64,000 bases of DNA from a phage, in sequence record PX418213.1. One strand, written 5' to 3'. A model generated the notes under the pieces. The model had not been told where the DNA came from. It saw only the letters and a list, made by a program, of their open reading frames with translations, and searched no databases. Positions 1-64,000 of the stretch are shown piece after piece (position 1 is the stretch's first letter; each line of letters begins with the position of its first letter). A program made the position numbers and the translations under genes.

Positions 1-2
1 AT

Positions 3-1724: not shown

Positions 1725-2217
1725 TACTCCAATTATTTTTCTAGACATTGATGGGGTGCTCAATTCGAGCATCTCCCACCATCATGCACCTGACGATGAG
1801 AAGATTTTCTTTGGAAGTGATTGGGTTTTCAAACCGCTTCTCAAGGCTTTTCAGGACTTTATTCGTCCTTCTCCAATAATGATTGTTGGAGTATCATCTT
1901 GGTTCTCTGTCAGAAATGAGATGGAGAACGTTCGGATTATGACCGGATTAGGTCTTATCGATCGTTTTCTTGGTACAACGGATTTTACTGGTGGTGGATT
2001 ATCTAGGGGTAATTCTGTTCTTCGTTTCGTCGAAAAGCATAAGCTCAAACATTGGTGTGTACTTGATGATGCGGGTGCTATGATGTATCAGTATCCAACG
2101 GTTATAGTCAACGGTAGAACTGGGATAAATCTTCAAGATTTAAAAGCTGTTAGCTATATGCTAGAATTTAGCCCAGATCTTGAAATGTGTAAATCCTTAC
2201 AACAATTTAAGGTGTAA
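1711..2217 (+). CDS. HAD-superfamily phosphatase or hydrolase
   Basis: N-terminal IIFLDIDGVLNSS matches HAD motif I (DxDG[TV]). Confidence 0.55.
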   Translation: MEISNTPIIFLDIDGVLNSSISHHHAPDDEKIFFGSDWVFKPLLKAFQDFIRPSPIMIVGVSSWFSVRNEMENVRIMTGLGLIDRFLGTTDFTGGGLSRGNSVLRFVEKHKLKHWCVLDDAGAMMYQYPTVIVNGRTGINLQDLKAVSYMLEFSPDLEMCKSLQQFKV

Positions 2218-2219
2218 AT

Positions 2220-2648
2220 ATGTTCAATAATGTATTCTCTAAAGAAGCTAACCCAATTTTGGTTAACTTTTGGCGTACTCTCCCGGCTAGCCTGTATAAT
2301 GAGGCTATTAACTCCTTGAAAATATGGTGTGAGAATAATGAAATCTCCTTTGCTTTTAAAGATGATATTGATGAGGGCCCCTGTATTGGTTTAACTGTGC
2401 AGGTAGAGGATGGTCTTGAAGAGATTGTCGGCTGGAAAGAGTTGGATGAAATGGGCTTAGTTTTTGCGTTAAACTATAAGCTGTTTATGCCTAACAAACA
2501 CCGTATTGCTATTAATTATAAAACCGGTGAATCTCCTGGTTTTCAGGTTAATGAACGTTATGGTTGGTCTTACTCACCAGAAGAAGTAAATGAGGGGATT
2601 CAGAAACTTCGACGTTTCGGGTATATAATCCCAGGTTTAACTGCTTAA
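2220..2648 (+). CDS. hypothetical protein, tandem paralog 1
   Basis: Shares with the next ORF the pattern D(D)PCIG...ELD(E/A)MGL(V/I)(F/V)ALN...GW/PGL. Confidence 0.45.
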   Translation: MFNNVFSKEANPILVNFWRTLPASLYNEAINSLKIWCENNEISFAFKDDIDEGPCIGLTVQVEDGLEEIVGWKELDEMGLVFALNYKLFMPNKHRIAINYKTGESPGFQVNERYGWSYSPEEVNEGIQKLRRFGYIIPGLTA

Positions 2649-2657
2649 GGAGGCAGA

Positions 2658-3050
2658 ATGGAACAAGTATATTGGCGTCAGATTGACCCTAGTTTGGTGA
2701 AACGTGCGGAGAAGCTGCTACAACGTTGGTTGGGGGTAAGACAAGCCTCCTTCACTTTTCCGGAACAGCAAATAGATGACCCCTGCATTGGTGTTTTCCT
2801 GTCTGGATATGCCGGGGAATGGGAATTGGATTGGAATGAATTGTCTGCTATGGGCTTGATTGTTGCCCTAAACTTCTCTATATTCCATCCACGTGGTTTG
2901 GCCATATGTCGTGTGCCTGATGACGGTTGTTCGCCCCATCTTTTACAGGTGGAAGATGATATTTGGGAGTACACTCCAGATATTCTCAAAGAGGCTAAAG
3001 AACAATTAAACCGTGTTGGGATATATGTTCCGGGATTAAATGATGAATAA
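2658..3050 (+). CDS. hypothetical protein, tandem paralog 2
   Basis: Paralogous to 2220..2648; preceded by AAGGAGG. Confidence 0.45.
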   Translation: MEQVYWRQIDPSLVKRAEKLLQRWLGVRQASFTFPEQQIDDPCIGVFLSGYAGEWELDWNELSAMGLIVALNFSIFHPRGLAICRVPDDGCSPHLLQVEDDIWEYTPDILKEAKEQLNRVGIYVPGLNDE

Positions 3051-3237
3051 GGAATTTTGGAAAATAAAAGGTAAGATTTCTAAGTGGAATACTACAGGGA
3101 AAATTAGTAAGTCTCTAGAGATAGAGATAGCTAGAATGTTTACTGATCCTGATTTTGATATAGGAAAGCTAAGTAAAGTAGATGCTAAAAAAGTAGATAA
3201 GTATATGGAAGAGATTAGAAGTATTTTAAGTGTCTAA
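3040..3237 (+). CDS. hypothetical small protein (65 aa)
   Basis: ORF track; followed by an intrinsic terminator. Confidence 0.35.
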   Translation: MMNKEFWKIKGKISKWNTTGKISKSLEIEIARMFTDPDFDIGKLSKVDAKKVDKYMEEIRSILSV

Positions 3238-3244
3238 TCCACAT

Positions 3245-3270
3245 AACCGAGTCATTTTGGCTCGGTTTTA
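3245..3270 (+). terminator. rho-independent terminator
   Basis: Stem aaccgag / ctcggtt with 9-nt loop, followed by a T-run. Confidence 0.55.
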
Positions 3271-3313
3271 CCCGTACTCAAGACCAATGATAGCACCATC
3301 CGGAAAATTTTAC

Positions 3314-3342
3314 TTGCAGGATGCCCAAAATCTTGATATAAT
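3314..3342 (+). promoter_or_regulatory. sigma70-type promoter
   Basis: TTGCAG, 17 nt, TATAAT, in an AT-rich context. Confidence 0.4.
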
Positions 3343-3841
3343 ATTTATATTGAATTGAGAGACATTAGTAAAAATTGATTTTGCTAATTTTTCTTGTTTA
3401 CAATCCGCGATACGGAACAGTTAGGCTGCCCCATTAAGGGTTGTTTTAACTGTTACGTGTTAGTTTTTAAACAAATAATTAATAGAATACTTAGCGATCT
3501 ACATCCCGTAGGAACCCTGGTAAGGCCTCGAAGCAACCTAGTGTGAGGTGGTTGTGAAGTGAGACGGGAAGAGTGAAAAACTCTGAGAAGTGATGACGTA
3601 AGGTATACTACATCTAGTATGAGCTAGTACATGAAGCATTAGGTGAGCAAATCTGGCTTAGCGGCCATCCTCAAGGATTTGTGCGGTATAGTGAAGCGGC
3701 AGTGTAGCGTGAAAGGGGAAGTTGCCACCCCCCTTCAGTATTTGCGATTAATTTGTTGAGAAATTGACAGTAACAGTTGTTCTATTCTTTCTGAATAGTC
3801 CTAAAGAAAACTTATTTCATTTCCAACACAGGAGTATTGTT

Positions 3842-6628
3842 GTGTTCTCAATCCTACAAGGTCATGCAGGATTTCATCGCGATTTAGCCACAGGCAATTG
3901 GCGAGAAGTTAAAGCAGAAGACTATCTTTTTGCTAAAAGATTTTCCTCAAAGCATCCTGAAGGTAAACCAGCTTCAATGCCCTTCAAGTTTGATGTAATT
4001 GATGAAGTTGATCCTCAAACCCTAGTAGAAATGCTTCCTCTTATGAGACGTTTAACGTCTGACCCTCATATCGTTGCGGTACGAGGTCGATGTCTTGCAC
4101 CTAAAAATAATGTGCGACGTAAGAAGGGCAACTTTAATATATCTAACCCAAGTCATATAATTGCAATGGACGTGGATGGTATTGTAGATACAGGTGGTTG
4201 TAACAAGTTTGATCTTGTTGGCATGGCTCGACATATTATTAGAATGTTAAATAGTATTAGTGAGGATATGTTTCCTCTTGATGCAGGGTTTATTGCTCAT
4301 GCATCGTCTTCGGCTGGACTAAAACCAGGTATCCGAATGCACTTAATACTAGAATCTAATGTTAAAGTAACTCAGGGTCAAATCAAATTCTTATTTACAT
4401 CTATCAACGAAAGTAGTAGACAAAAGTATGGCTTTGATATTGCCGACTTAGCCTATTACTCTTCCGTACAGCTCCATTACTTTGCAGATCCGTTATTTAT
4501 CGATGGTATAGTAGATCCGTTTAAAGCGGAGGGTGCTTCACGTCTGGTATTTGTTAAGGGTTCTAAAGTAAATTTACCCAATAATCTGGTTGACTATGAA
4601 ACAACTAGGGGTGAGTTTAAAGAGGAGTTTTACTCTTTACTCGATCAAATTAAAGGTAAAAAAGCTGCCTCTGATAAAGTAGAGGAAACTATCAGCGAAC
4701 TAGAAGAAGCTGAGGATGGAGTGTATCTACGTATCATACCTAAACTCTATCACAGAGCTTTAGAGGATGGTGTTGACTTTGCATGGCTAGAAAAAGAAAT
4801 CCGTCCAGCCTTATCAGAGTATATTGCAACTAAAGATAATAGTCGTAATATTCAAGATTACTTTAATAACGGTCGTAAACAGGCTCTGAAAGCATTTGTT
4901 AATAATTCTAAACGTGATATACCGGATGTTTTAAAAGGTATTCCACTTAAAAAACTAGAAACTAATTCTCTAGAAACTGATAACTTCTTGAAATTAAATA
5001 CTGTACCACCAGAAGGTTATATGACTTTTGTAAAAGCAAGTCTAGGTACAGGTAAAACTACAGCGGTTGTGCGTTGGTTAGACTCAGGAGTTATTAAAGG
5101 TAATTTCTTAGCAATTACCAATACTAGAGCGCTAGTATCTTCAAATGCTAAGAAATTTAGTGCAGGACAATATGATAAGTCTGTAGATATGCTTAATTTT
5201 AAGCGTGGTGCTATTGACCGTATGTCCACAACTATTCACTCTTTGCATAAGTTCAAGAGTTTTATTGGTCAAATTGATGCAATCTTTATCGATGAATGTG
5301 ATGCTGTAATGAATGACCTATTATTCGCCCCGGTTGTTAAACAACGTCGTGAATGTATTCAGGTTCTTCGAGACATTCTTGCAACTGCAAAAATCATTAT
5401 ATTATCTGATGGGGATATTAGTGCAGAAACAATTGAAGCATATGGTTCTTTGATTGAGTTTGATAAACCGGTTGCATTTTATAATCATCACCGTAAAATG
5501 CTATCAAAAGCTCATGCTTATGAGTTCCCGGATGAATCCAGTATTTGGGTTGCACTTCAGACTTCTCTAGAGATGGGTGAGAAATCTATCCTAGTATCTG
5601 ACTGTGGGCCGGATGAACTGAATGAGAAGGGCATGGCATTACGTCGTAATACGGGTGCGTTAGTTAAGGAAATCCACTCAAACTCTACGTCTGATGTAGA
5701 TATTCGACGTATTCTGGATTACACAACTAATGAGCTAATTGATCAACAAATTGATTGCTTATTATGTAGTCCATCGGTAACAAGTGGTGTTGACTTTAAC
5801 TACTTTGATAACGTATTCGTTATTACTAGAACCTCAAACCAAGCGCCAAACATGCGTTTCCAAGCAATCAGGCGCGACCGTGGTGCTCAGAACATTTATT
5901 ATTTTATTGATAAATCTACGAGTGGGTTCTCCGCAGGTTCTGAGCAATATAACATTGATGAAGGTTGGCTGGAGTTAGCACAGCAATTATACGCACGTCG
6001 CAGGGAGCTGGAATCTAGAAACTATACTAGTACTCTACGTTATTACTTGCTTGATCAGGGTGCAACTATTGATATTTTCAGTGAAAGCTGGGGAAATATC
6101 GAAGGTGCAGGAAAAGAGTATACGGAAGAGCGAATCAAAGCTATTTTGTATTCAACTCCTGATTATTGTGCTCCACGCCATGCAGATGCGTATGAAGCTA
6201 AACTACTTCTTGTTCGCTATTACCATCTTGAGTCTATTAAAGATGTAACAGTTGAGCATGTTGAACAATATATCAAAGATAAACCGAATGATCGAGCTGC
6301 ATTCTTCCATAAGATGCACGAGATGTTCTGGGAAGATATTAAGAAGTGTTCAAATGTCACTATCAAACCCTTTATAGAAGCTCTGAAAGGTAAGAAGAAA
6401 GATTTCTTCCTTAAAACAGGTCAGAGTGCTAACCCAAAATATGCGAGAATGTATCTTGGTATGATGGGTATTGGCAAGGATATGAACACGGAGAATATTG
6501 TAGACTGGTACAGAACCTATTGTAAAATCGAGTGTATGCCAATCCCCCTAAAATTCATGACAGAGGAAGAGAAGGCCATGGCAGAAGAAGTAATGTCCGA
6601 ACTTGGAGCAACCAATGAAGATACATAA
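3842..6628 (+). CDS. large helicase-domain protein (possible replication initiator or origin-binding helicase)
   Basis: Walker A ASLGTGKTT and DExD-like box IFIDECDAV; start refined to in-frame GTG 3842 preceded by AGGAG at 7-nt spacing (ORF track starts at 3764). Confidence 0.5.
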   Translation: MFSILQGHAGFHRDLATGNWREVKAEDYLFAKRFSSKHPEGKPASMPFKFDVIDEVDPQTLVEMLPLMRRLTSDPHIVAVRGRCLAPKNNVRRKKGNFNISNPSHIIAMDVDGIVDTGGCNKFDLVGMARHIIRMLNSISEDMFPLDAGFIAHASSSAGLKPGIRMHLILESNVKVTQGQIKFLFTSINESSRQKYGFDIADLAYYSSVQLHYFADPLFIDGIVDPFKAEGASRLVFVKGSKVNLPNNLVDYETTRGEFKEEFYSLLDQIKGKKAASDKVEETISELEEAEDGVYLRIIPKLYHRALEDGVDFAWLEKEIRPALSEYIATKDNSRNIQDYFNNGRKQALKAFVNNSKRDIPDVLKGIPLKKLETNSLETDNFLKLNTVPPEGYMTFVKASLGTGKTTAVVRWLDSGVIKGNFLAITNTRALVSSNAKKFSAGQYDKSVDMLNFKRGAIDRMSTTIHSLHKFKSFIGQIDAIFIDECDAVMNDLLFAPVVKQRRECIQVLRDILATAKIIILSDGDISAETIEAYGSLIEFDKPVAFYNHHRKMLSKAHAYEFPDESSIWVALQTSLEMGEKSILVSDCGPDELNEKGMALRRNTGALVKEIHSNSTSDVDIRRILDYTTNELIDQQIDCLLCSPSVTSGVDFNYFDNVFVITRTSNQAPNMRFQAIRRDRGAQNIYYFIDKSTSGFSAGSEQYNIDEGWLELAQQLYARRRELESRNYTSTLRYYLLDQGATIDIFSESWGNIEGAGKEYTEERIKAILYSTPDYCAPRHADAYEAKLLLVRYYHLESIKDVTVEHVEQYIKDKPNDRAAFFHKMHEMFWEDIKKCSNVTIKPFIEALKGKKKDFFLKTGQSANPKYARMYLGMMGIGKDMNTENIVDWYRTYCKIECMPIPLKFMTEEEKAMAEEVMSELGATNEDT

Positions 6629-7133
6629 ACCAATGCCTCCTATGGCATTTATCCTGAAAAAGCTTAAGTATGATGAAAGTACTGGGGACTTAATTTGGTT
6701 ATCTGGCCCAAGGAAGGGAAGGGTAGCGGGCTCCAAAATGAAAACTGGGAGACAGTTAGAGTTTACTATAAAGGGAGAGCGGACAGCTTACTTAGCCCAT
6801 AGAATAATCTGGTTTATAAAAACAGGCGAAGATCCTGGGGATAAAACTATCGACCACAAAGACGGGGATAACTTAAACAACTTGTGGGATAATTTACGTA
6901 AGGCTACCTACTCCGAAAATGGAAAGAATAAGAAGTGTTCTACTAATTCTACCGGATTCACTGGAGTTGTAAAACGAGGTAATAGGTATATGGCCTACGC
7001 TTACTGTGATGGAAAGCAGCATATTTTTGGTAGACGAGATACCCCGGAAGAAGCCCATCAGCTATACCTTATGGGAGTTAAAGAACTGTTTGGTGAATTT
7101 AATCCCTCGGAGAGATATGACAGTGAAGAATAA
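6615..7133 (+). CDS. HNH homing endonuclease with AP2-type DNA-binding domain
   Basis: IDHKDGDNLNNLWDNLR (HNH His-Asn-Asn core) followed by GFTGVVKRGNRYMAYAY (AP2-like); ATG 6615 preceded by GGAG. Confidence 0.6.
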   Translation: MKIHKPMPPMAFILKKLKYDESTGDLIWLSGPRKGRVAGSKMKTGRQLEFTIKGERTAYLAHRIIWFIKTGEDPGDKTIDHKDGDNLNNLWDNLRKATYSENGKNKKCSTNSTGFTGVVKRGNRYMAYAYCDGKQHIFGRRDTPEEAHQLYLMGVKELFGEFNPSERYDSEE

Positions 7134-7350
7134 AAAATGGGAAACAAGGAAGTTCCCAGTAAAAGAACGTAAAGTTCCTGCTTACAACACTTCGGAAAAG
7201 CTATGTAGGGTGGTTCCTGCTAGACTAGCTGGCATCCCTAACATATCCGAGTGGTTACTTAAACAACGGAAAACAAACGTGTCTCTTCGCATCGGCTTTG
7301 AGTTAGATAAAGTCTATGCTGAACTTGCTTCTTTGCTCAAGGAATCGTAA
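7117..7350 (+). CDS. hypothetical small protein (about 77 aa)
   Basis: In-frame ATG 7117 preceded by GGAGAG; the ORF track version starts at 7006 inside the HNH gene. Confidence 0.35.
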   Translation: MTVKNKKWETRKFPVKERKVPAYNTSEKLCRVVPARLAGIPNISEWLLKQRKTNVSLRIGFELDKVYAELASLLKES

Positions 7351-7358
7351 AAATTTAT

Positions 7359-7387
7359 TTGCTTTCAGGAAAATTTTTCTGTATAAT
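7359..7387 (+). promoter_or_regulatory. strong sigma70 promoter, N25 type
   Basis: TTGCTT, 17 nt, TATAAT, AT-rich upstream, leader cataaatttgagagaggag then ATG 7419; the block 7350-7418 matches the canonical T5 N25 promoter as I recall it. Confidence 0.75.
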
Positions 7388-7418
7388 AGATTCATAAATT
7401 TGAGAGAGGAGTTTAAAT

Positions 7419-8123
7419 ATGGCTGGTTCTCGCAGAAAGAAACATATCCATGAAATCCCTGATGAAGTCTTTAAAAAGGTTATAGAGCATCTGGAGAACG
7501 GTGGTACTAAGAAAGCAGCATGTGAAATGCTCGGCGTATCATCCAATCCAACTATGGAAAGGATGATTGAGGAGTGGCAAGACCGCCAGATCCAAGTTGC
7601 CGAAATGAAGAAAAAGAAACGCGGCACACTTATTGAAGGCATTGAGTTAGCTAACGTTATTGAGCAGTATTTATCTGGTGATTCTTTCGAAGAAATTGCC
7701 GATCGTAATTACCGCTCTGTAGCAATGGTTAAATCTGTTCTGGAACGATATGGTGCTCTACTTCGTTTGAACGATATTGTAGATCCATTGAATCCTCCAA
7801 TTATTCCTGATGATGCTGTAGCAGAAGAATTTGCAGTTGGTGAGCTTGTTTGGGTTCCTGGATACCAGTGTATTGGTGAAATCAAAAAAGCAATGGATAA
7901 TCCTGTTGGTTGCTATCGTGTATGGCTTCTATCAGAAGGCAAACAACAGAACGTCCATTATATGAATTACGAGCTGGCTTCTGTTAAACATCTGGAAAAA
8001 TTAGGGGTTGACGTAAAATCTCTAGGGTACAAGTGGACTCGTGAAGAAGTAATTTCATTAATTAATGAAGCTGTTAAGGCTGCCTTGAAACTTGATAAAG
8101 AAAAAGGAAAACGCCGTGAGTAA
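7419..8123 (+). CDS. putative helix-turn-helix DNA-binding protein (234 aa)
   Basis: First gene downstream of the N25-type promoter; HTH-like segment TKKAACEMLGVSSNPTMERMI. Confidence 0.4.
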   Translation: MAGSRRKKHIHEIPDEVFKKVIEHLENGGTKKAACEMLGVSSNPTMERMIEEWQDRQIQVAEMKKKKRGTLIEGIELANVIEQYLSGDSFEEIADRNYRSVAMVKSVLERYGALLRLNDIVDPLNPPIIPDDAVAEEFAVGELVWVPGYQCIGEIKKAMDNPVGCYRVWLLSEGKQQNVHYMNYELASVKHLEKLGVDVKSLGYKWTREEVISLINEAVKAALKLDKEKGKRRE

Positions 8124-8367
8124 GCTAACAGATTTGCTTAAAGATGGGGAAGTAAAAACTCTGTATCGTAGAAGCTGGGATAATGATAATAATGGCTTAG
8201 TATTACTAACTCTAGATGCTGACTCAGATGTAGTTACCCAACATACCTGGGTAGCTGGTAATTATCCCTATAGTGAGGTTGTTACGTTAACAGTATGCGA
8301 AGCTATTGCCGACGATTGGGAGGTTGCCAGCATCGATGATATGCTCGCTGTTGGCCTGGTGGAGTAA
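8116..8367 (+). CDS. hypothetical protein (about 83 aa)
   Basis: In-frame GTG 8116 preceded by AAGGAA; ORF track starts at 8092. Confidence 0.35.
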   Translation: MSKLTDLLKDGEVKTLYRRSWDNDNNGLVLLTLDADSDVVTQHTWVAGNYPYSEVVTLTVCEAIADDWEVASIDDMLAVGLVE

Positions 8368-8384
8368 CTACAGAAAAATTTCAG

Positions 8385-8412
8385 TTGCTTAATCCTATAA
8401 TTCTTGATATAA
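8385..8412 (+). promoter_or_regulatory. sigma70 promoter
   Basis: TTGCTT, 16 nt, TATAAT, upstream of 8471. Confidence 0.5.
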
Positions 8413-8470
8413 TATTCTCATAGTTTGAAAGAACTATTCTGTTTAATTCTTAATTAAGGAAATATAAAAT

Positions 8471-8881
8471 ATGACTACTCCAACTCAGTGGACTGATGAA
8501 CTGTTCGAAAAAATGTCTTCCGAATACGTTGCTCGTATGGAGCAATTCCCAGAGGATGAACGTCCGGGTGTTAGCATGGAAATTGTTAGCGAAATTGCCC
8601 AGGAAAATGGTGTAACTCCGAACGGTTTTCGTATGAAGCTGACTAAAGCAGGTTTGTATATCAAGAAAGCTGCTGGCTCCGCTTCTAAATCTAGCGCATC
8701 TACTGGAGAAAAAGCTTCTGGTGGTTCTCGTACTTCCAAAGCCCAAGCTCATGCCGATCTTCGTTCAGCATTCTCTGATGCTGGCTTAGCACCAGATTTT
8801 CTGGATGATGCAATTATCGACAAACTGACCGGTAAAGCGGCTGCTCATCTGGCAGAAGCAATCCGAGCTATCACTAAGTAA
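8471..8881 (+). CDS. hypothetical early protein (136 aa)
   Basis: Own promoter and AAGGAA site; codon usage resembles highly expressed host genes (ctg, cgt, gct rich). Confidence 0.45.
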   Translation: MTTPTQWTDELFEKMSSEYVARMEQFPEDERPGVSMEIVSEIAQENGVTPNGFRMKLTKAGLYIKKAAGSASKSSASTGEKASGGSRTSKAQAHADLRSAFSDAGLAPDFLDDAIIDKLTGKAAAHLAEAIRAITK

Positions 8882-8917
8882 TTTTTAGATAAATCCACCA
8901 ACAAAAGGAACACAGTT

Positions 8918-9214
8918 ATGACCAAAGCTGAAATTATCGCACAATGTGAAAAATTTGGTGAGTTTTATCTTCATTACGAGAAACTTCGTCAGAAAGGAAC
9001 CACGTACCTTCAGGGTACGATGGAATTTGATCCAGCCCAAGATAAATATCTGGCTGAGCGTATTAAACGTGAACGTATTCGTAAAGCGAAAGATGATGAG
9101 ATCCTTGTCTTCTCTCGTACTAATGATAGCTTCCGTTTTATTCCTGTCGAGAAAGTCCGTCGTGTGACTAGCCTCCAATCAGAGTTAGATCGTGCTTCTC
9201 CAGTAGGCCGATAA
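8918..9214 (+). CDS. hypothetical protein (98 aa)
   Basis: ORF track; AAGGAA upstream; terminator downstream. Confidence 0.45.
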   Translation: MTKAEIIAQCEKFGEFYLHYEKLRQKGTTYLQGTMEFDPAQDKYLAERIKRERIRKAKDDEILVFSRTNDSFRFIPVEKVRRVTSLQSELDRASPVGR

Positions 9215-9224
9215 GAAACCAATT

Positions 9225-9246
9225 AGCCCCTATATGGGGCTTTTTG
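9225..9246 (+). terminator. rho-independent terminator
   Basis: Stem agcccc / ggggct, loop tatat, then TTTTT. Confidence 0.6.
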
Positions 9247-9264
9247 TGTATTTGGGATAAGTAA

Positions 9265-9573
9265 ATGAGCGAACAGGTAAATCAAAACTATGAAGGACAC
9301 GTTGATGACCAGTCCATCATACTCTGGGAGAAGGAGGGAGAACAAATAAGATTAACAGTATCTGAATTTCGTGGGAATCTATACATGGGTATTCGTTACT
9401 GGCTTCTTGATATTAATGATGAATGGTTTCCAACGAAATCTGGCTTCTCTTTTCCTTACACCCTAGAAACAACATCACAGCTTTTCTATGCGTTTACACA
9501 GATTCTTAGCGAATCTGAGGTTTTACATGAAGTACAGAAACGAGCTGAAGAACTCAAAGCCAAGAATGCCTAG
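9265..9573 (+). CDS. hypothetical protein (102 aa)
   Basis: ORF track; flanked by terminators. Confidence 0.45.
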   Translation: MSEQVNQNYEGHVDDQSIILWEKEGEQIRLTVSEFRGNLYMGIRYWLLDINDEWFPTKSGFSFPYTLETTSQLFYAFTQILSESEVLHEVQKRAEELKAKNA

Positions 9574-9590
9574 TTCTTGGCTTTTTCTTT
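9559..9590 (+). terminator. rho-independent terminator
   Basis: Stem gccaaga / tcttggc followed by tttttcttt. Confidence 0.6.
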
Positions 9591-9600
9591 ATAAATGTAT

Positions 9601-9629
9601 TTGCTTTCAACTCAGTTTTGTTATATAAT
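9601..9629 (+). promoter_or_regulatory. sigma70 promoter, N25 type
   Basis: TTGCTT, 17 nt, TATAAT; downstream leader gagagggttgcaaaGTG. Confidence 0.55.
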
Positions 9630-9659
9630 ATTTATATAAATTAATGAGAGGGTTGCAAA

Positions 9660-9932
9660 GTGAAAAAGATAAATATAAGTACACTTAAACCTTTCCCATA
9701 TATCGGACAGCCTCTTATACTTATGTGGGAGGAGAAGATTAATGGAGAAAAGTATTCTAAAATTAGAAGTGGGTATAAGCTGATTTCACTTCATTACGAA
9801 AAAGAAATATTAACAGCTGAAATATACTCTCCATTGTCAGATAGGCTAGTAAAAACCACGTATTTGCATCTCTGCAAAAATTTTACATGGCACGGATCCA
9901 CTAGACAGCCCACGTACTATGAGGCAGAATAA
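9660..9932 (+). CDS. hypothetical protein (90 aa, GTG start)
   Basis: ORF track; stop overlaps the ligase start (TAAATG). Confidence 0.4.
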   Translation: MKKINISTLKPFPYIGQPLILMWEEKINGEKYSKIRSGYKLISLHYEKEILTAEIYSPLSDRLVKTTYLHLCKNFTWHGSTRQPTYYEAE

Positions 9933-10904
9933 ATGACTAATATAAAAGACTTTATTAAACGTTGTCAAGAAGCGTATTACCAGGGAATGTCTTTAATCTC
10001 TGACGAAGAATATGATCGTCTGATTAAAAGATTTCCGTTAGAAGAAGAGATTGGCCCTAAGGGCGATATTCCACATCTGTATCGTATGTATTCTTTACAG
10101 AAAGTTTATTATAATCGTGGAGATAAACCCCCATTTAACCCATTAGGTCAGGTAGAAACTGACAAGTTAGATGGTTGTGCGATTTCTCTATTATATATTA
10201 ATGGCGAATTTGTTCAAGCGCTAACTCGTGGTAATGGCATTTTAGGGAATGATGTCACAAGCAACGTAAGATTGCTGAATATCCCTGAAAAGATTTCCCA
10301 AAAAGTACCTACTCAAATCACTGGTGAAGTTCTAATTACAAAAGAAGTAGAAAATAAACGTAACTTTGCCTCTGGTGCTATTAACCTCAAAGATAGCGAT
10401 GATTTCGTACAACGTATCGGGGAAGGTGGTTTAATCTTCGTTGCATACGGTATCCAGTGTTCTGCTGAATCTGTAGGTATTACAGAATCGTATTTAAAAG
10501 ATATGCTCTGGCTAGAGAATGAAGATTTCTTAACAGTTGTTAATGTGCGTTCCTTCTTTAAATGGATTCCGACGGACGGTAAAGTTGTTCGTATTAATGA
10601 CAACAACAAATTCTTCCGAGAAGGCTGGACTAATAAATTCCCTCGTGGGGCATTCGCTATTAAAGAGGATGAAGAAGGCGAGATTACAACTCTTACTAAA
10701 GTTGAATGGCAGGTAGGGGCTTCTGGTAAAGTAACTCCAGTTGGTTATTTCGAACCGGTAATTATTGATGATGCTACAATTGTTAAAGCGACTCTTAATA
10801 ACGTTGATTATATTAACTCTCTTGATCTAGAGATCGGTTGCCAGATTCGAGTGATTCGTGCTGGTGGTGTAATCCCGTGCATAGTAGAGCGAGTATACGA
10901 TTAA
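9933..10904 (+). CDS. NAD-dependent DNA ligase, N-terminal adenylation-domain ORF
   Basis: Adenylation lysine motif DKLDGCAISL (KxDG); ends with a stop well before the Zn-finger/HhH/BRCT part. Confidence 0.7.
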   Translation: MTNIKDFIKRCQEAYYQGMSLISDEEYDRLIKRFPLEEEIGPKGDIPHLYRMYSLQKVYYNRGDKPPFNPLGQVETDKLDGCAISLLYINGEFVQALTRGNGILGNDVTSNVRLLNIPEKISQKVPTQITGEVLITKEVENKRNFASGAINLKDSDDFVQRIGEGGLIFVAYGIQCSAESVGITESYLKDMLWLENEDFLTVVNVRSFFKWIPTDGKVVRINDNNKFFREGWTNKFPRGAFAIKEDEEGEITTLTKVEWQVGASGKVTPVGYFEPVIIDDATIVKATLNNVDYINSLDLEIGCQIRVIRAGGVIPCIVERVYD

Positions 10905-11886: not shown

Positions 11887-12646
11887 ACTGAACTGGAACG
11901 TAGAAGGTGTAACCGAGTCTCTGAAAGCAAAAGCCACTGCTCTGGGTGTTGCTGTAATCTCTCAAGAACAAGTAGCTGCTATCGCTGCTGAACTGGCCGC
12001 TGAAACTGGCAAAGATGTTACTGCTCGCTCTGTTGGCTCTAAACTGCGTAAAGAAGGTTTTGAAGTACAGAAAGCTAACGAAGTACAGAAATCCCCGTGG
12101 ACTCCTGAGCAGGAAGCTGAACTGGTTGATTTCCTGAACGCTCATGCTGGTCAGTATACCTATGCTGAGATCGCTGCTGCTGTAGCTGGTGGTCAGTTCG
12201 GTGCTAAACAGGTACAGGGTAAGATTCTGAGTCTGGAAATGACCGCTTCTGTTAAACCAACCGAAAAAGCTGCTGCTGTTCGTTCCTTCACTCCGGATGA
12301 AGAAACTGATTTTGTTAATCAGGTTGTTGCTGGTGCTACTATTGAAGCTATCGCTGCTCACTTCGGTCGCAATATTAAGCAGATCCGCGGTAAAGCTCTG
12401 AGTCTGCTTCGTGAAGGTCGTATCGCTGCTATGCCAGTACAGGAAACTTCAAGTGCTAAAACTCGTGAAGATCTGTTAGAAGGTCTGGATCTGGTTAACA
12501 TGACTGTTGCTGAGATCGCTGAGAAAACTGGTAAGTCTGAGCGCGGTGTTAAATCTATGCTGTCTCGTCGTGGTCTGGTTGCTAAGGACTATGATGGTGC
12601 CGCTAAGCGTGCTAAACTGGATGCAAAAGCTGCGGCTGCTGAATAA
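11879..12646 (+). CDS. putative DNA-binding protein with four tandem HTH-like repeats
   Basis: Four internal repeats of the form (T/Y)xAEIAxxxGxxxxxVxxKxLSL..G; host-optimal codon usage suggests high expression. Confidence 0.4.
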   Translation: MSKLNWNVEGVTESLKAKATALGVAVISQEQVAAIAAELAAETGKDVTARSVGSKLRKEGFEVQKANEVQKSPWTPEQEAELVDFLNAHAGQYTYAEIAAAVAGGQFGAKQVQGKILSLEMTASVKPTEKAAAVRSFTPDEETDFVNQVVAGATIEAIAAHFGRNIKQIRGKALSLLREGRIAAMPVQETSSAKTREDLLEGLDLVNMTVAEIAEKTGKSERGVKSMLSRRGLVAKDYDGAAKRAKLDAKAAAAE

Positions 12647-21842: not shown

Positions 21843-23661
21843 GACACTAAAATTTAGTAACGTTATGTCTTACGGTAAAGACATCGTAATTCATTTCGAT
21901 AAGAATCCAGTTACTCAACTAATTGGTGGCAATGGGCTAGGGAAATCCACTATTGCTACTGTTATTGAAGAACTATTTTATAATAAGAACTCACGTGGTA
22001 TTAAGAAGGATGCTCTGTTCTCTTGGTCTTCTCCGAAAAAAGAGTATGATATGCACGCTTACTTCTCGAAAGATGAAGATGAGTATGAATTGCATAAAGT
22101 AGTTAAATCAACTGCTAAAGTAACTCTTATTAAGAATGGGGAAGATATTAGTGGGCACACGGCAACTCAAACATACAAGATGATTGAAGAGATTATGGGT
22201 GGTGACTTCCAAACATTCACCAAACTAATTTATCAATCAGTGGGTTCCAATCTAGACTTTCTAAAAGCAACAGACGCAACACGTAAGGCTTTTCTTGTTA
22301 ACTTGTTCAATCAAGAACAGTACAAAGAAATGTCAGAAACTATTAAGGCTGACCGTAAAGAAATAGCAAATACTCTAAATAATTTGCAAGGCCAAATGGC
22401 TGTAATTACGAAAATCCTTAATGGAAAGAATAATCTGGGAACTTTGCAGGAACCTGTAGAAGTACCAGAGTTTGATGAAGAGCCATTAGCACAAGAACTT
22501 ACTGAATCGAAAATTAAGGCGGCATTAGCCAAGTCTCAAGAGGCTAATATTACTAAATTGCGTAATTTGGACAAAGCTGTACAAGTTGCCGAACAATCTT
22601 TCGAGCCTTTCAAAAATTTACCTGCGCCCACTGACCAAAATGAAGAGATCTCGAGTGTTACGCGTGACCTAACGATTGTGACCTCACGTGCGTGCGAAGT
22701 CAAGAAACGTTATCAGAGGTTCAAGCAGGAAGCTTCAAATACTGAATGTCCTACTTGTGGTACTCATCTGGATACAACTGCTGCTCAAAAAGCAATGGAT
22801 ATGGCTAGAACAGAATACGATCCTCTGTTCAAAGAAAAGCAATCTCTTGAAGCTAAGCTAGAACAGCTGAAGAAAGAACAACTTGAGTACGTTGCGTATA
22901 CTAGAGCAAAAGATGCTTTGGATAAGGCAGTAGCAGCTAGAGACGAGTTCAAAAACTCAATGAGTGATGCTTCTTTTGAAGAACTCAATGTGCAAATCCT
23001 ACAGGTGCAAATCCGACAATTAGAACAGGAAATCGCTGATGGCCGTTCTAAGGTTGCAATTGCCAAAGAGCATAACGCAAATGTAGAATTAGCCAATGCA
23101 AAATATAAAGCGAAACTAGAACAGATTGAGAAAGCTGAGGCAGAAATGTCTGAGATTACTTCCAAACTGGATGAAGTATCAGAAGCTGTTGCTGATCTCG
23201 ATATTCTGATCGCCGCATTGAAAAATCTGGTAGGGTATAAGCTAGAGCATAGTGTGAAAGTATTTGAAGAACTAATTAATAAATACCTTTCCATTATGAC
23301 TGGCGGTAAGTTCGCACTTGGATTTGAACTTGATGAAACAAAATTACAAGTAGTAATTTTCAATGATGGAAACCGTACCAGTATGGAGAACTGCTCTACT
23401 GGTCAGCAAAGTCGAATCAACCTAGCAACTCTGTTAGCTATTCGAATGCTGCTAACATCTATTAGTAAAGTTAATATTAATCTTCTATTCCTTGATGAAG
23501 TAATTAGCTTTATTGATACTAAAGGACTTGATACCCTTGTTGAATTGTTAAATGAGGAAGAAAGCCTAAATTCTATCATTGTTTCTCATGGGCATACGCA
23601 TCCATTAGCCCATAAGATTACTGTCAAAAAAGATGCAGAAGGATTTTCCTACTTAGAATAA
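21823..23661 (+). CDS. SbcC/Rad50-like ATPase
   Basis: Walker A GGNGLGKST, long coiled-coil middle, C-terminal LLFLDE Walker B region; ATG 21823 chosen over ORF track 21742, which overlaps the nuclease gene by 100 nt. Confidence 0.65.
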   Translation: MSKITIKTLKFSNVMSYGKDIVIHFDKNPVTQLIGGNGLGKSTIATVIEELFYNKNSRGIKKDALFSWSSPKKEYDMHAYFSKDEDEYELHKVVKSTAKVTLIKNGEDISGHTATQTYKMIEEIMGGDFQTFTKLIYQSVGSNLDFLKATDATRKAFLVNLFNQEQYKEMSETIKADRKEIANTLNNLQGQMAVITKILNGKNNLGTLQEPVEVPEFDEEPLAQELTESKIKAALAKSQEANITKLRNLDKAVQVAEQSFEPFKNLPAPTDQNEEISSVTRDLTIVTSRACEVKKRYQRFKQEASNTECPTCGTHLDTTAAQKAMDMARTEYDPLFKEKQSLEAKLEQLKKEQLEYVAYTRAKDALDKAVAARDEFKNSMSDASFEELNVQILQVQIRQLEQEIADGRSKVAIAKEHNANVELANAKYKAKLEQIEKAEAEMSEITSKLDEVSEAVADLDILIAALKNLVGYKLEHSVKVFEELINKYLSIMTGGKFALGFELDETKLQVVIFNDGNRTSMENCSTGQQSRINLATLLAIRMLLTSISKVNINLLFLDEVISFIDTKGLDTLVELLNEEESLNSIIVSHGHTHPLAHKITVKKDAEGFSYLE

Positions 23662-49376: not shown

Positions 49377-50693
49377 TTATTTACCACGGGAAATAGAGTA
49401 AATTCCATAGCGCAGCGCATCACAAAGGTGAGAGTTAGCATCATGACGTGGTTTTTCACGTGATAATTTTTCCTCACCTTCTTGGAAATCCCACTTATAG
49501 TTCTGCAATGCATGGATTAATGAGGAACATGAAGCATCTACAATAATCTTACCCTGCTGGAATAGTGCTTGTAAACATGCTAGACCATCTAGGACAGATT
49601 TCTTAGCAGGAGCTGATGCAATTTCATGTTCATACGCTAAATCCTGACGGAACTGGGCAGCCGCGGAGTCAACGAAGATACGATCTACGTTATAACGATC
49701 TATACAGTGCTGAATATACGCAGCATGCTGAGCTGTGGTTTTCTCCGCCTGCTGATACTCTTCTAATACATAGTAAGTATCCGTATCGTAATGATATTTA
49801 ATAGTAAGAACTGCTGTAGGATCACGATAACCAACGTCAATACCGAGCAACGTTTCGAAGGCTTCATCATCTTTAAAGAAGTGACGCATACCTTTAAGGT
49901 CTTTAACATGATCGATAGCATTAAAGGTGTCAAAGATCTGACCTTCGAATACAGAGAAGTCAGCCTCGTATTCTTGGCGGAAGTAGTTTTTACTAACAGT
50001 ACGACGTGCTTCCTCAATGTCATTCAGGTCAGCACGTGGATTATCACGATATGTACCATGAATAGACACCCAGTTAGGCAACGTATCATCAAACCCATAG
50101 GCATAAAACTCTTTAAACCAGTTACCACCACGAGGAGTAGAGATAAACAGAGCCTTAGAATTAGGTTTATCTAGAGTAGGACGCAACTGAACCCTGAAGG
50201 CATCACCACCTACATCAGAAATTGCAGCCTCATCAAAGATGATAAAATCATATGAACGTCCAACTGCGGAGTCAGCCTGAGCCGCAGAAGCTAGTTTAAA
50301 TAAAGAACCATTAGCTAACTCAATCTCCTTATCTTTAGCGTTCTCACGTTCGGTTTGTAGGCCGTACTTTTTAATAAGACCACGAATCTGAGACCATCCG
50401 ATATTGGCCAGTGAGTAGTTAGGGGCAACTACTAGCACTTTCACATTAGGTTCAAGCAACTTTAGGAACCCAAGTGTATATGCGATGAAGGACTTGCCCA
50501 CACGGCGTGATACACACGCCGTTACAAAACGATGTCTAGGATCTTCTAGCGCATTGATAATTGCTATTTGAGGACCATTAGGTGTAATACCTTCTTGCGC
50601 CAATATTCCAGAAACAGGTAGACGAAAGAAACGTTTATCTATCCCGAAATCAATAACATCTACCGTATTAACGTAGGGTCTTGATACTTCCAT
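49377..50693 (-). CDS. terminase large subunit
   Basis: Walker A CVSRRVGKS, Walker B-like FIIFDEAA, C-terminal nuclease region; 438 aa. Confidence 0.8.
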   Translation of the reverse strand: MEVSRPYVNTVDVIDFGIDKRFFRLPVSGILAQEGITPNGPQIAIINALEDPRHRFVTACVSRRVGKSFIAYTLGFLKLLEPNVKVLVVAPNYSLANIGWSQIRGLIKKYGLQTERENAKDKEIELANGSLFKLASAAQADSAVGRSYDFIIFDEAAISDVGGDAFRVQLRPTLDKPNSKALFISTPRGGNWFKEFYAYGFDDTLPNWVSIHGTYRDNPRADLNDIEEARRTVSKNYFRQEYEADFSVFEGQIFDTFNAIDHVKDLKGMRHFFKDDEAFETLLGIDVGYRDPTAVLTIKYHYDTDTYYVLEEYQQAEKTTAQHAAYIQHCIDRYNVDRIFVDSAAAQFRQDLAYEHEIASAPAKKSVLDGLACLQALFQQGKIIVDASCSSLIHALQNYKWDFQEGEEKLSREKPRHDANSHLCDALRYGIYSISRGK

Positions 50694-51175
50694 TACTTCT
50701 TACCTCCAGTAGCTAGGGAAGTAATTAAGTCCATGTAGTTTTGATCCCCAGCTCCAGCAATAATATTATTCTGGATGTTGGTCTGGTTAGCTGGAGTACG
50801 GGCTGCTGCCTTCACTTTCTCCAACTCTACCATCATTTTCATCTCTTCCATCTTCATCTTGTGTGCCTTCCAGAGGATATCCATAATATCTTGGTCAGAA
50901 CCCATTCCAGTTTCTTCCAGTTCCTCCAGCTTACGTTTAATAACTTCATCTAGAACACCGAACAAACGATCTCTGTTACGGAAACCACTCTCCATAAAAA
51001 TATCGTTTAAGTAGTTCTTAACTTCACTACGATTCATAATATCTCGGAAAGCAATCTCGGACATTCCAAGACTACGTGCGGCAGAAGGCACATCGCTGCC
51101 ACACTGTAAATAAGCTTCAATCACATCCATCCCTTCAGGGGACATAAGATCTGGTACTAATACATCATTTGCCAT
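50693..51175 (-). CDS. putative terminase small subunit / DNA-binding protein
   Basis: Immediately upstream of the large subunit with overlapping stop/start; HTH-like [17 protein letters not shown]. Confidence 0.35.
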
Positions 51176-57782: not shown

Positions 57783-58190
57783 TTATTCACCTGCGGCTTG
57801 TTTTACCTCATCGGCAACGCCTAACAACTGCGCCACGGCGTCCAGCGTTTCCAGCTTCGCGCTTTCAAGGCTTGCCAGATCATCGGCGTCCTTGATAATG
57901 CCGGAATCGATAGCGTGTTTTGCAATTACTCGCACATAGTGAGCTTTACGGATTGAGCTGCCGCCGCCAACCTTGCGCGGCTTGTCGCTTTTTTGGTAGG
58001 CTTTCGCGCTGGTCAATTTCGAACGAACTGACACGGGAGAAGCCGCACCAACTGCTTTCGCGATCTCTTTCAAGCCGTCGCTATTTGCGAATTCTAGCCC
58101 GTTTTCATTGATTAACTGCTGATACATGGAAACAGCCTGCTGGGTGTTTTCTTCGTTCCAGGAAAATTTTGCGGCTTTAACGTTAGTCAT
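57783..58190 (-). CDS. A2: A2-like pre-early DNA-binding protein (135 aa)
   Basis: Size and position immediately upstream of the A1-like gene; basic C-terminal half. Confidence 0.45.
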   Translation of the reverse strand: MTNVKAAKFSWNEENTQQAVSMYQQLINENGLEFANSDGLKEIAKAVGAASPVSVRSKLTSAKAYQKSDKPRKVGGGSSIRKAHYVRVIAKHAIDSGIIKDADDLASLESAKLETLDAVAQLLGVADEVKQAAGE

Positions 58191-62859: not shown

Positions 62860-63117
62860 TAATCACGGGGCGCAACTATCCGGGAGTGCCCCCAATTTTC
62901 AAACGATAATCATTCTCATTTGACCGCGCTCGCGATGGTTAGCCTGCTAATGGTTCGGGTGTTACGTGTCGCCTTGTGTGATCGTTAGCGTGCTAACTAA
63001 TTTTCAAGCCTCCTCCAATTTTGCCCTTGTTTTAGTATCTCCACCAAAATAAAACGCGTTAGAATGCGTTTGAGAGCGTTTTAGCGGTATATTAGAATTA
63101 TTCACTACATAGGAATA

Positions 63118-63157
63118 CTGTATATTTATACAGTAGGATAAGCTGTGGATAAGTCTG
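63118..63157. repeat. right arm of the 40-bp inverted repeat, with DnaA-box-like sites
   Basis: ctgtatatttatacagtaggataagctgtggataagtctg; further TGTGGATAA at 63207-63215. Confidence 0.7.
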
Positions 63158-63250
63158 TTAATAACGCCTCAAAATGGCTAGGATTCTGTCAAGTCAAATC
63201 GTGCTGTTAATAAGTCTGTGGATAACTTAAATAACAGTGTTTCTCACTTC

Positions 63251-63500
63251 CGTTCTTAAATGAGAATCATTATCATTTGCATTTCACTATCTAACTAATA
63301 ATCATTCCACTTTTTAAATGAGAATCGTTCCACTTCCTGAATAATTTTCGTTCCACTTTCTAAATGATAATCGTTATCATTTGCATTCCTCTTTCTAAAT
63401 GCGAATCATTCCACTTCTTAAATGAGAATCGTTTCACTTTTTAAATGAGAATTATTATCATTCTCATTCCGCTTTTTAAATGAGAATGATTCTTATTATC
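63251..63500. repeat. array of about seven direct repeats with a Fur-box-like palindromic core
   Basis: TTAAATGAGAATC(A/G)TT(A/C/T) units, for example 63256-63274 and 63360-63378; each matches the Fur consensus GATAATGATAATCATTATC at about 15 of 19 positions; an isolated copy at 62905-62920. Confidence 0.6.
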
Positions 63501-63510
63501 ATTCGTATTT

Positions 63511-63534
63511 AGCGCAGGGCAATTGCCCTGCGCT
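63511..63534. other. perfect 24-bp palindrome
   Basis: agcgcagggcaattgccctgcgct followed by TTTT; possible terminator or dimeric protein site. Confidence 0.5.
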
Positions 63535-63537
63535 TTT

Positions 63538-63760
63538 GTGCAAATCCGACATTGCTCCACGGGTGTTACGTGCGGGCGTGTATGTGCGAATCCGACAATT
63601 TTTGGTAGTGTGCAAATCCGACTCGAAAAATTTTTATAGTGTGCAAATCCGACAATGAATTTTTCTAGAAACTCCAGCAATCTCGAACTGCGCATCAATC
63701 CTGTGGAGTATGTGCAAATCCGACATGGTTTTTCTAGGATTAAGATGTGCGAATCCGACA
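63538..63760. repeat. six dispersed direct repeats of a 14-bp motif GTGC(A/G)AATCCGAC(A/T)
   Basis: Copies at 63538, 63584, 63609, 63641, 63712, 63747, spaced 25-71 bp, all in the same orientation. Confidence 0.7.
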
Positions 63761-64000
63761 AGATTTTTGTGACTTCGATGAGAGGGTGTGTGATTGTGTG
63801 AGTTTGAGGAGAAGTTGAGAGAGCGAGTGAAACTTGGGGGAACTGCGAGAGGGGCGCATGTTTGGTGCAGGGCACCTGATTTGCGGGGATTTTGGGGAAG
63901 AGTTGAGAAGATTTGGGTTAATTTGAGATTAGGGGAGATAAAGTAAAATTTTATTAGCAAAATGGGGCAAAATAGCTTGACAAGTGAAAATTTCTGTGGC

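Follow-up and report, generated by a model that had tools for sequence, protein, structure and literature searches.

Polar direct repeats near the right end of a T5-like phage genome: conserved candidate protein-binding sites beside a terminal cut

The DNA analyzed here, a 64,000-nucleotide stretch of a phage sequence record (PX418213.1) referred to below as the window, is colinear with T5 56446-121748 (local BLAST), and its last base aligns with T5 10217, i.e. 2 nt short of the annotated end of the T5 terminal repeat. The colinearity, together with the ending of the window at the terminal-repeat boundary, indicates that the window is the right-most 64 kb of a linear T5-like genome (Demerecviridae), the right terminal repeat of which begins near 54363. 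The injection stop signal (iss) of such phages is defined functionally as the cis-acting sequence where first-step transfer halts, at ~8% of the genome. The T5 annotation (NC_005859) places it at 9140-10149 and the terminal repeat at 1-10219.

Downstream of its rightward pre-early genes, where the long terminal repeat has its inner end, the window has a non-coding stretch with a set of short direct repeats. This set aligns with T5 121284-121506 and 9753-9975, within both the annotated iss and the terminal repeat, and on positional homology to the annotated T5 iss we assign the array of the window to the iss. On the same alignment, the array is located 240-460 bp from the physical right DNA end, inside the right terminal repeat. 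The 1.2 kb around it matches 454 phage records, all of them from T5-like Demerecviridae. The neighborhood also holds DnaA boxes, which lie 300-400 bp upstream and in the same orientation, as well as AT-rich iterons. Between the last repeat and the terminal-repeat boundary, the DNA is G-rich and C-poor, with a GC skew of +0.58 to +0.69, and has a conserved TTGACAAGTGAAAA (63977-63990) immediately ahead of the cut; the pre-cut sequence TTGACAA(G/A)TGAAAA..., followed beyond the cut by (TC)TAAAAAC, is common to T5, BF23 and a My1-like contig.

A pattern search of the 64-kb window with GTGCRAATCCGACW returned six exact copies of GTGC(A/G)AATCCGAC(A/T) between 63538 and 63760, on the + strand only (Table 1). 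The start-to-start intervals are irregular (46, 26, 31, 71 and 35 bp) and, when checked for helical phasing, showed no common phase; a run of five T occurs within ~10 nt after five of the six copies. When up to two mismatches were allowed, the window gave eight motif matches against 0.69 expected, a count reached in none of 100 shuffles; the two matches besides the array form an in-gene pair, at 22990 and 23005. Exact matching thus reproduces what had been noticed in a sequence-only reading of this DNA, i.e. six direct copies at irregular intervals following a perfect 24-bp palindrome. The same reading had stressed the position beside pre-early genes, with which the location of the orthologous T5 stretch inside the annotated injection stop signal agrees, and had proposed motif searches of the genome and of relatives as a check; the motif is far above background in the window and is found in relatives, among them T5, BF23 and L6jm.

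Table 1. Features of the window (positions 1 to 64,000) and, in the last five rows, layout of motif copies around the terminal-repeat boundary in related phages.
Feature	Position	Strand	Remarks
Exact motif copy in D13 (SbcC/Rad50-like) gene	23005..23018	+	preceded by a 1-mismatch copy, 22990-23003
Small terminase subunit gene, candidate trans-acting binder	50693..51175	-	PHROG 3802, E 6.5e-91
Gene A2, candidate trans-acting binder	57783..58190	-	pre-early DNA-binding protein
GC-rich palindrome/stem-loop, then TTTT	63511..63534	.	perfect 12+12 nt, no spacer
Repeat copy 1, GTGCAAATCCGACA	63538..63551	+	inside the spacer of the bipartite nick site; GCGC 4 nt before
TTACG element	63566..63570	+	distal half of the bipartite signature C[CT]GCGC-N29-33-TTAC[GA]
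Repeat copy 2, GTGCGAATCCGACA	63584..63597	+	exact match and 23-array alignment
Repeat copy 3, GTGCAAATCCGACT	63610..63623	+	exact match and 23-array alignment
Repeat copy 4, GTGCAAATCCGACA	63641..63654	+	replaced in two relatives (L026, L038)
Repeat copy 5, GTGCAAATCCGACA	63712..63725	+	10-bp positional shift between two alleles
Repeat copy 6, GTGCGAATCCGACA	63747..63760	+	missing from L042
G-rich, C-poor terminal segment	63761..64000	+	extends to the terminal-repeat boundary (mature right end)
T5	inner 9753-9975; boundary 10219; outer 10306, 10341, 10478 and in-gene 12154		
L6jm	inner arranged as in T5; boundary 10386; outer 10473, 10508		
BF23	inner -465 to -257; boundary 9743; outer +87, +122, +1911		ends read-mapped (PhageTerm)
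My1-like contig (122 kb)	last inner ~364 bp inside; boundary 2379; outer from +247		boundary in L044 coordinates
Vibrio phage Ceto	eight TAGGTGCAAA-type inner copies, last ~110 bp inside; boundary 8301; outer +139, +166		boundary in coordinates of the reverse-complemented locus L013

As a feature, the array is already known: by motif, order and position, the six repeats are the right-terminal-repeat orthologue of the T5 DRD direct repeats. The DRD repeats have been described as part of T5 'Repeat Region 3', or the injection stop signal (Heusterspreute 1987; Wang 2005; Davison, bioRxiv 10.1101/866236), and Davison regards them as conserved, without giving them a function, and favors the upstream DnaA boxes as the stop signal (bioRxiv 10.1101/866236). 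Our scan of T5 found six copies within the terminal repeat and three just outside it, and these copies end where Davison's region ends, after an 80-bp offset between two T5 records. Our equation of DRD with the motif is based on three points of agreement, namely where DRD stands in Davison's list, the total of nine copies (6 + 3) and the coordinate at which the region ends. The T5 copies read GTGC(A/G)AATCCGAC(A/C), and T5 and the window are alike in motif, in the order of elements (palindrome, iterons and DnaA boxes relative to the repeats, with the repeats following the palindrome), in the six inner copies, in orientation and in orthologous position. They differ in that the palindrome is a perfect 24 bp in the window, whereas it is imperfect in T5, and in the intervals between copies 4, 5 and 6, which are 71/35 in the window and 81/25 in T5. 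The window, which stops at the genome end and so carries the right-repeat copy, has the six inner copies of the nine-copy DRD layout; in the closest relatives, L6jm and BF23, outer copies are present in the left-end context. In the literature up to 2026, we found no function or binding protein assigned to the DRD repeats, and according to papers from 2026, second-step transfer and the iss are still poorly understood and A2, a DNA-binding protein, has no known role. The present work adds a sharper description of the repeats, in terms of their polarity, their start at a nick site, their bracketing of the terminal cut, the depth to which GTGCRAA is conserved and the copy in D13.

The motif is strictly polar in T5 as well. 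In one T5 terminal repeat plus the unique region, all 12 copies recovered with up to two mismatches were on the + strand, whereas a tolerance of 3-4 mismatches gave 35 and 39 matches on the two strands, i.e. background. In a 15-mer scan of IMG/VR, stretches with at least two matches all came from contigs of 96-123 kb, as for T5-like genomes, with isolated single matches in other contigs. Arrays of the exact motif are present in Epseptimavirus, in Sugarlandvirus (10 copies, with an A2 protein that is 65% identical) and in the My1-like contig. In Vibrio phages the 5' half, GTGC(A/G)AA, is kept and the 3' half is different; a GTGCRAA core is thus conserved from E. coli to Vibrio phages. The array as such is not universal in the Demerecviridae: a search of Proteus phage PM135 found it absent, with only a single unit of GCGC plus copy 1 (CTGCGC-ctat-GTGCGTAATCGAC...TTACGTG).

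Alignment of 23 distinct, colinear arrays from the Markadamsvirinae revealed that conservation is higher in the motif columns than in the spacers (0.969 vs 0.876), with 52 of 78 motif columns invariant compared with 74 of 159 spacer columns, and that single copies have been lost or replaced in relatives. Two interval alleles, 71+35 and 81+25, are present, such that the distance from copy 4 to copy 6 is constant at 106 bp; the 10-bp shift of copy 5 between them hints at a phasing constraint on the array. Because the motif columns outconserve the spacers and single copies are dispensable, the array behaves as a redundant, strictly polar set of short asymmetric sites that are candidates for protein binding. 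The proposal of the sequence-only reading that the repeats are sites for a sequence-specific protein thus gains from the difference between motif and spacer columns, from the 12:0 strand bias and from the family-wide core.

The palindrome directly upstream of the array, with arms AGCGCAGGGCAA/TTGCCCTGCGCT, aligns with T5 9725-9749, where a major single-chain interruption of the minus strand, at 9748/9749, is annotated in T5. The right arm of the palindrome, CCCTGCGC (63526-63533), is orthologous to the 7.9%/99.5% major nick of T5, which falls within the right arm of the palindrome, between CCCTGCGC and T, 4 nt ahead of the first repeat. The minus strand of the window reads A/GCGCAGG at 63534-63527, fitting the T5 nick consensus R/GCGCRGG, and a nick is predicted in the window on the minus strand, between 63534 and 63533. 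A bipartite signature, C[CT]GCGC-N29-33-TTAC[GA], is common to all four distinct T5 major nick sites. Applied to T5, it picks out all five annotated major positions on the + strand plus one minus-strand site, in a test that is partly circular because the signature was derived from the same T5 sites; in the window, it occurs at 63528 (the palindrome), 22622 (the D13 site) and 62924.

As RNA, the palindrome is predicted to fold into a strong hairpin (-24.4 kcal/mol, z -5.74) with TTTT behind it. A consensus scan of the region left this hairpin unlisted as an intrinsic terminator, and in Rfam no family reached its threshold, the best being rliI with 26.5 bits vs 45; all matches overlap the hairpin. 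Across 13 sequence variants, two stem pairs show compensatory double changes, a result matched by 3 of 500 shuffles; the inner six stem pairs are practically always paired, with a loop insertion in one lineage, and the outer two are paired in only 5-7 of the 13. The perfect 24-bp form of the palindrome is thus a trait of a sub-lineage, with conservation confined to an inner GC-rich stem of ~6-9 bp. Since Klebsiella phages are without the palindrome yet keep GCGC and copy 1, the stem-loop is a lineage-specific addition over the nick site, possibly a terminator or a cruciform. The unit CYGCGC-N4-6-GTGCR.. is kept in T5 and in Klebsiella, Proteus and Vibrio (Ceto) phages, and, because PM135 retains that one unit without the array, the nick-type GCGC together with the first repeat is the most conserved piece of the region.

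The feature that discriminates best between the possible roles of the repeats is one not stressed before, i.e. their placement with respect to the terminal cut. The mature right-end cut is bracketed by the inner array and an outer pair, the latter located just outside the repeat in the left-end or concatemer context, in T5, BF23, L6jm, the My1-like contig and Ceto (Table 1), whereas the other boundary of the repeat is without copies, the search at the left boundary of the T5 terminal repeat having found none nearby. In Ceto, the A2 protein is only 41% identical and the DNA has no detectable similarity, yet both the inner array and the outer pair are present. Of 11 contigs checked, 9 have their last inner copy beginning 255-257 bp before the terminal locus ends. 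Polarity, conservation and geometry relative to nick and terminus are in this sense direct observations on the sequences. In practical terms, the motif and its distance to the end can help to place the true ends of T5-like genomes, whose database records are often permuted.

Copies of the motif also occur within genes. In the window, the D13 pair (22990-23018) specifies the residues VQILQVQIRQ of the protein's coiled coil; identical copies are found in T5 D13, at 78936/78951, and lie 363-378 bp from another major nick. In phage Eos, the D13 segment has 55% protein identity and an exact copy, ATGTGCGAATCCGACAT, with a rare CGA codon, the neighboring codons having diverged; Klebsiella and Vibrio D13 homologs are without a motif copy. 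The retention in Eos of both motif and CGA codon while the flanking codons diverge suggests that the isolated D13 copy is under constraint at the DNA level within one subfamily. Another conserved isolated in-gene copy is present in T5.019.

From these observations we infer binding, a binder and a mechanism as follows. The reading that we rank first, with a probability of roughly 0.35, is that the repeats form an array recognized, by the small terminase subunit as reader, in the terminase-dependent processing of DNA ends and in packaging. After assembly of the small subunit on the array, the repeat boundary ~245 bp downstream would be cut by the large subunit or by a nuclease associated with it, which would also nick at the GCGC next to copy 1. 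The common orientation of the sites would determine which way packaging proceeds into the repeat. In four lineages, copy 1 lies directly against the nick site, and the small-terminase open reading frame is labelled 'putative sciB' in two older records, one of them from 1991; sciA and sciB are T5 late-region genes required for nicking (PMC3517423), and we count both the abutment and the label in favor of a packaging role. The strict one-strand polarity of the sites argues in the same direction, as does the lack of copies at the left repeat boundary, which would be expected of an initiation-side signal. The first rank of the packaging reading is due to the clusters that bracket the right end even where there is no other DNA similarity.

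Sets of repeats flanking a terminase cut are a standard packaging-signal architecture, and repeat sets lie beside terminase cut sites in SPP1 (pacL/pacR), lambda (the cosB R sites) and T7 (SRL/SRR). As in SPP1 pacL-pacC-pacR and in lambda cosB, the T5-type copies are short asymmetric repeats on both sides of the cut and within a few hundred bp of it, with irregular intervals and with bendable A/T tracts nearby. T5 differs from both SPP1 and lambda in that it has long exact terminal repeats, being neither a cos phage nor a headful phage, and in its variable distance from array to cut. In T7, for which Dunn and Studier are said to have described in 1983 that the SRL/SRR short-repeat arrays flank the terminal repeat, the likeness lies in irregular short direct repeats at a terminal-repeat boundary and in packaging from concatemers. 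The T7 arrays, however, lie outside the repeat and on both sides, whereas the T5-type arrays straddle one boundary and are mostly inside, and the sequences are unrelated.

The packaging reading has its difficulties, one of which concerns direction. If the left end enters first, a last-in-first-out rule would have the right end packaged first, and the inner array would then occupy a cosB-like position; according to PMC3517423, on the contrary, the left end is packed first, so that a polarity which is itself inferred stands contradicted. The cut is not measured from the repeats, because the array-to-cut distance varies from ~110 to 350 bp among lineages. The link between terminase and nicking is weakened by the two of the four T5 major nick sites that are without copies, and by the sciB label being 'putative'. 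The in-gene copies in D13 and T5.019 are not accounted for, some database record ends may have been set by homology to T5 and not from measurement, and the helix-turn-helix (HTH) of the terminase is poorly conserved between T5 and Vibrio phages, which have the GTGCRAA core in common.

The last point raises the question of the reader, for which A2 is the other candidate. The AF2 model of A2 is confident (pLDDT 85.1), and alignment of the family reveals an invariant W-x-E-(E)...Y signature as well as a putative recognition helix, SVR(S/T)KL, that is invariant in all lineages, Vibrio and Proteus phages included. We assign to A2 a Myb/GcrA-like DNA-binding domain, in which the recognition helix is putative; domains of this type read short asymmetric sites. 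A Foldseek search with the A2 model gave no significant match, and Pfam and PDB sequence searches with A2 and the small terminase gave no informative matches. The small terminase has the usual N-terminal HTH-like segment, which is far less conserved between T5 and Vibrio phages. The identities to the Klebsiella, Vibrio and Proteus phage proteins are 65, 39-44 and 39% for A2 and 52, 41-47 and 50% for the small terminase; because the values for the distant lineages are similar, co-variation does not single out the binder, and the helix comparison, although suggestive both ways, favors neither protein decisively.

Nearly as good as the packaging reading, and like it tentative, is the possibility that the repeats are candidate binding sites of the pre-early protein A2, possibly together with A1, for second-step transfer. 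A2 made from the first-step DNA would bind the polar array at the stalled segment and would ratchet or pull the DNA inward; alternatively, A2 may recruit A1 to process the adjoining nicked palindrome, upon which second-step transfer would resume. A2 is a DNA-binding protein essential for second-step transfer (2026 papers), the array is inside the annotated injection stop signal of T5, and Davison's shear-point estimate falls within ~50-150 bp of the array (bioRxiv 10.1101/866236). The invariance of SVR(S/T)KL parallels both the family-wide GTGCRAA core and the unit of GCGC plus copy 1, and the copies extend into the DNA that enters next (+87, +122, +260 and +1.9 kb), as would suit a ratchet for the restart. 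On the other hand, motif copies were found neither close to the A2 gene nor in other parts of the first-step DNA, and a correct shear estimate could leave the array inside the tail, outside the cytoplasm, at the time when A2 has to act. The A2 reading also leaves unexplained the consistent bracketing of the repeat boundary and the D13 copy 69 kb away. By analogy, the arrangement recalls the telomere repeats bound by Myb-type proteins (Rap1, TRF), i.e. asymmetric tandem repeats near a linear end with the G-rich strand running 3' endward, the candidate binder A2 being Myb-like; this would be only a resemblance, and the repeats are 240-460 bp inside.

Readings that start from the nick site or from host DnaA fare much less well. 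It is improbable that the repeats are auxiliary nicking elements, through which a nick-associated protein raises nicking at the terminal-repeat and D13 sites, although such a role would fit the position of copy 1, 4-6 nt from the GCGC core in T5, Klebsiella, Proteus and Ceto phages, the proximity of the D13 copies to a major nick, the shared strand polarity of repeats and nick signatures, and the report that the 7-nt nick consensus alone is insufficient for nick specificity (PMC3517423). The repeats are not nick sites themselves, and they can be ruled out as a general nick determinant, since no copy, even with up to four mismatches, lies within 1.5 kb of the T5 major nicks at 18.5% and 32.6% (22336 and 39746), which make up half of the four distinct sites. 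Moreover, the array is highly conserved although nickless T5 mutants are viable (PMC3517423), and for one nick at least five extra copies, as well as the outer cluster, would be superfluous.

Slightly less credible again is the proposal that the repeats are low-affinity boxes for host DnaA, by which Davison's model of an iss region held by membrane-bound DnaA would be extended. The reverse complement ATTTGCACA fits TTWTNCACA at 8/9 positions, as do the Vibrio variants, genuine DnaA boxes lie upstream in the same orientation, and the conservation of DnaA across hosts would account for that of the core. No copy, however, equals the consensus box, 8/9 being the best match, and the G variant ATTCGCACA fits at only 7/9, with a conserved T broken. 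In addition, conservation spans 14-16 nt (TCCGACA), far past a DnaA box, and the intervals are unlike those of the low-affinity arrays of oriC.

A replication origin with iterons, or a partition-like centromere, is very unlikely: the surroundings are origin-like, with DnaA boxes, AT-rich iterons and direct repeats, but T5 origins are near the genome center and the replication genes outside the first-step DNA (literature cited by Davison), no adjacent Rep or ParB-type gene was found, the phage is virulent, and a position 240-460 bp from the DNA end, bracketing a cut, would be unexplained. Among the roles offered by the sequence-only reading, transfer control and packaging accordingly still lead, whereas a partition-like site is not supported for an element at the genome end of a virulent phage with no ParB-type partner found. 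That reading was correct in setting aside a CRISPR array and coding repeats, given the irregular intervals and the 10-bp indels among relatives. It had identified neither the repeats as the DRD elements of T5 nor the T5 major nick site in the palindrome. CRISPR arrays have repeats of ~24-48 nt at regular intervals, with unique spacers of similar length, whereas the repeat here is 14 nt at intervals of 26-71 bp, with spacers conserved from phage to phage; program-called open reading frames do overlap the array, but the 10-bp indels, the copy losses and the non-coding annotation of the T5 region argue against coding repeats or small genes. A promoter or operator array is likewise rejected, because a scan of the array for promoter-like sites found none and the region is between convergent transcription units.

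The packaging and A2 readings might also be combined, in that the nick site, the polar array, the G-rich segment and the outer pair would form a single Demerecviridae 'terminal module' uniting a packaging cut, a pause held in the tail and an A2 ratchet, a proposal that would be of real interest if true but that, taken as a whole, is unlikely. In packaging, the module would define the right-end cut. In infection, the ~560-730 bp from the nick to the outer copies, which is about one tail length, would be held in the tail at the first-step pause; each repeat in turn would be bound by Myb/GcrA-like A2 on emerging, and this directional ratchet would set transfer going again.

The overall results bear on how entry of T5 DNA is stopped and restarted, a question open since the 1960s, as well as on the making of the 10-kb exact terminal repeats. 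Within the 1 kb of the iss, few elements are, like the array, discrete, conserved and mutable. Its strict polarity, its start beside a nick site and its placement around the terminal cut, even in the distant Vibrio phages, narrow the hypotheses for its role to a few that are separable from one another. Were the terminal module to prove true, it would give the 50-year-old injection-stop problem both a defined cis element and a defined reader.

The bipartite signature C[CT]GCGC-N29-33-TTAC[GA] recovers every annotated major nick position in T5, which represent the four distinct sites that it was itself derived from, and suggests that the nick site extends beyond the 7 nt of the published consensus. 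The matches in the window include an additional candidate, at 62924, for which T5 has no counterpart. A possible link between nicking and terminase function is hinted at by the small terminase ORF, which carries the label 'putative sciB' in M62847, a T5 record from 1991, and 'putative SciB protein' in MT311645, sciB being one of two late genes reported as controlling site-specific nicking.

The D13 nick-type site at 22622 is followed ~380 bp to its right, in the gene for the SbcC/Rad50-like protein D13, by a tandem pair of the 14-bp direct-repeat motif, one copy exact and the other with 1 mismatch; the T5 copies are identical to this pair. The motif copy is absent from the Klebsiella and Vibrio homologs of D13. 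Constraint at the DNA level is suggested by Eos, a distant phage with 55% protein identity across the D13 segment, which retains an exact copy despite divergence of the flanking codons. Proteus phage PM135 (Novosibvirus) lacks the repeat array and retains a lone CTGCGC-ctat-GTGCGTAATCGAC...TTACGTG unit, at about 12030-12090 on the reverse complement; thus, the arrays may be later expansions of an ancestral arrangement in which the nick site held a single copy. Short TTTCTAGAAA-type palindromes, which lie downstream of several motif copies, both within the terminal repeat and just beyond its boundary, may be a second recurring element of the array.

Coordinates of features in the window and in T5
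Feature	Genome	Position	Strand	Location or remark
Nick signature	window	22622, 62924, 63528	+	
Nick signature	window	31677	-	
Nick signature	T5	9743, 22331, 39741, 78568, 121274	+	
Nick signature	T5	87886	-	
Tandem motif pair	window	22990-23018	+	D13/SbcC-like coding region
Small terminase ORF	window	50693-51175	-	
TAAATGAGAATCATTATCATT-type iterons	window	63250-63505, also 62899-62923		upstream of palindrome
Sigma-70-like promoter match, TTGAGA-17-TAGAAT	window	63070-63098	+	10/12; ~430 nt upstream of palindrome hairpin and T-run
DnaA-type box pairs, TGTGGATAA with TGTTAATAA, 3 bp apart	window	63144-63164, 63205-63225		two pairs, mutually inverted
TTTCTAGAAA-type palindrome	window	63663-63672		
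TTTCTAGAAA-type palindrome	T5	10326-10335		
TTGACAAGTGAAAA	window	63977-63990		10-24 nt ahead of terminal cut

The ~250 bp preceding the genome end (63725-64000) are strongly G-rich and C-poor, with a GC skew of +0.58 to +0.69, the G-rich strand being that whose 3' end is the terminus. The complementary strand has a nick, predicted from the T5 ortholog, ~466 nt from the end, and melting off of the short nicked fragment could leave a G-rich 3' single-stranded tail. TTGACAAGTGAAAA is conserved in position across T5, BF23 and a My1-like contig, where the cut immediately precedes (TC)TAAAAAC. This sequence could belong to the context of the cut site or, alternatively, be a -35 element with its -10 past the repeat, in the left-end context only.

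To the left of the palindrome, the DnaA-type box pairs correspond to the DnaA and DnaA* boxes of the IRD'-spacer-IRC' described by Davison (bioRxiv 10.1101/866236). A short non-coding transcript could conceivably run from the promoter match to 63534 and hence span both these boxes and the Fur-like iterons; the weak hits to Rfam sRNAs (rliI, PrrF) simply reflect the palindrome hairpin.

The iterons resemble the Fur box (GATAATGATAATCATTATC), and 15 of the window's 26 Fur-box matches with ≤5 mismatches fall inside the 670-bp stretch of the iterons (shuffle mean 0.05), the best having 3 mismatches (63447 and 63482, minus strand). None of the top-ranked papers in a literature search drew a link between Fur boxes and T5. 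A putative array of Fur sites in the first-step DNA, i.e. the portion entering the cell before the injection pause, could matter for a phage that uses Fur-regulated receptors.
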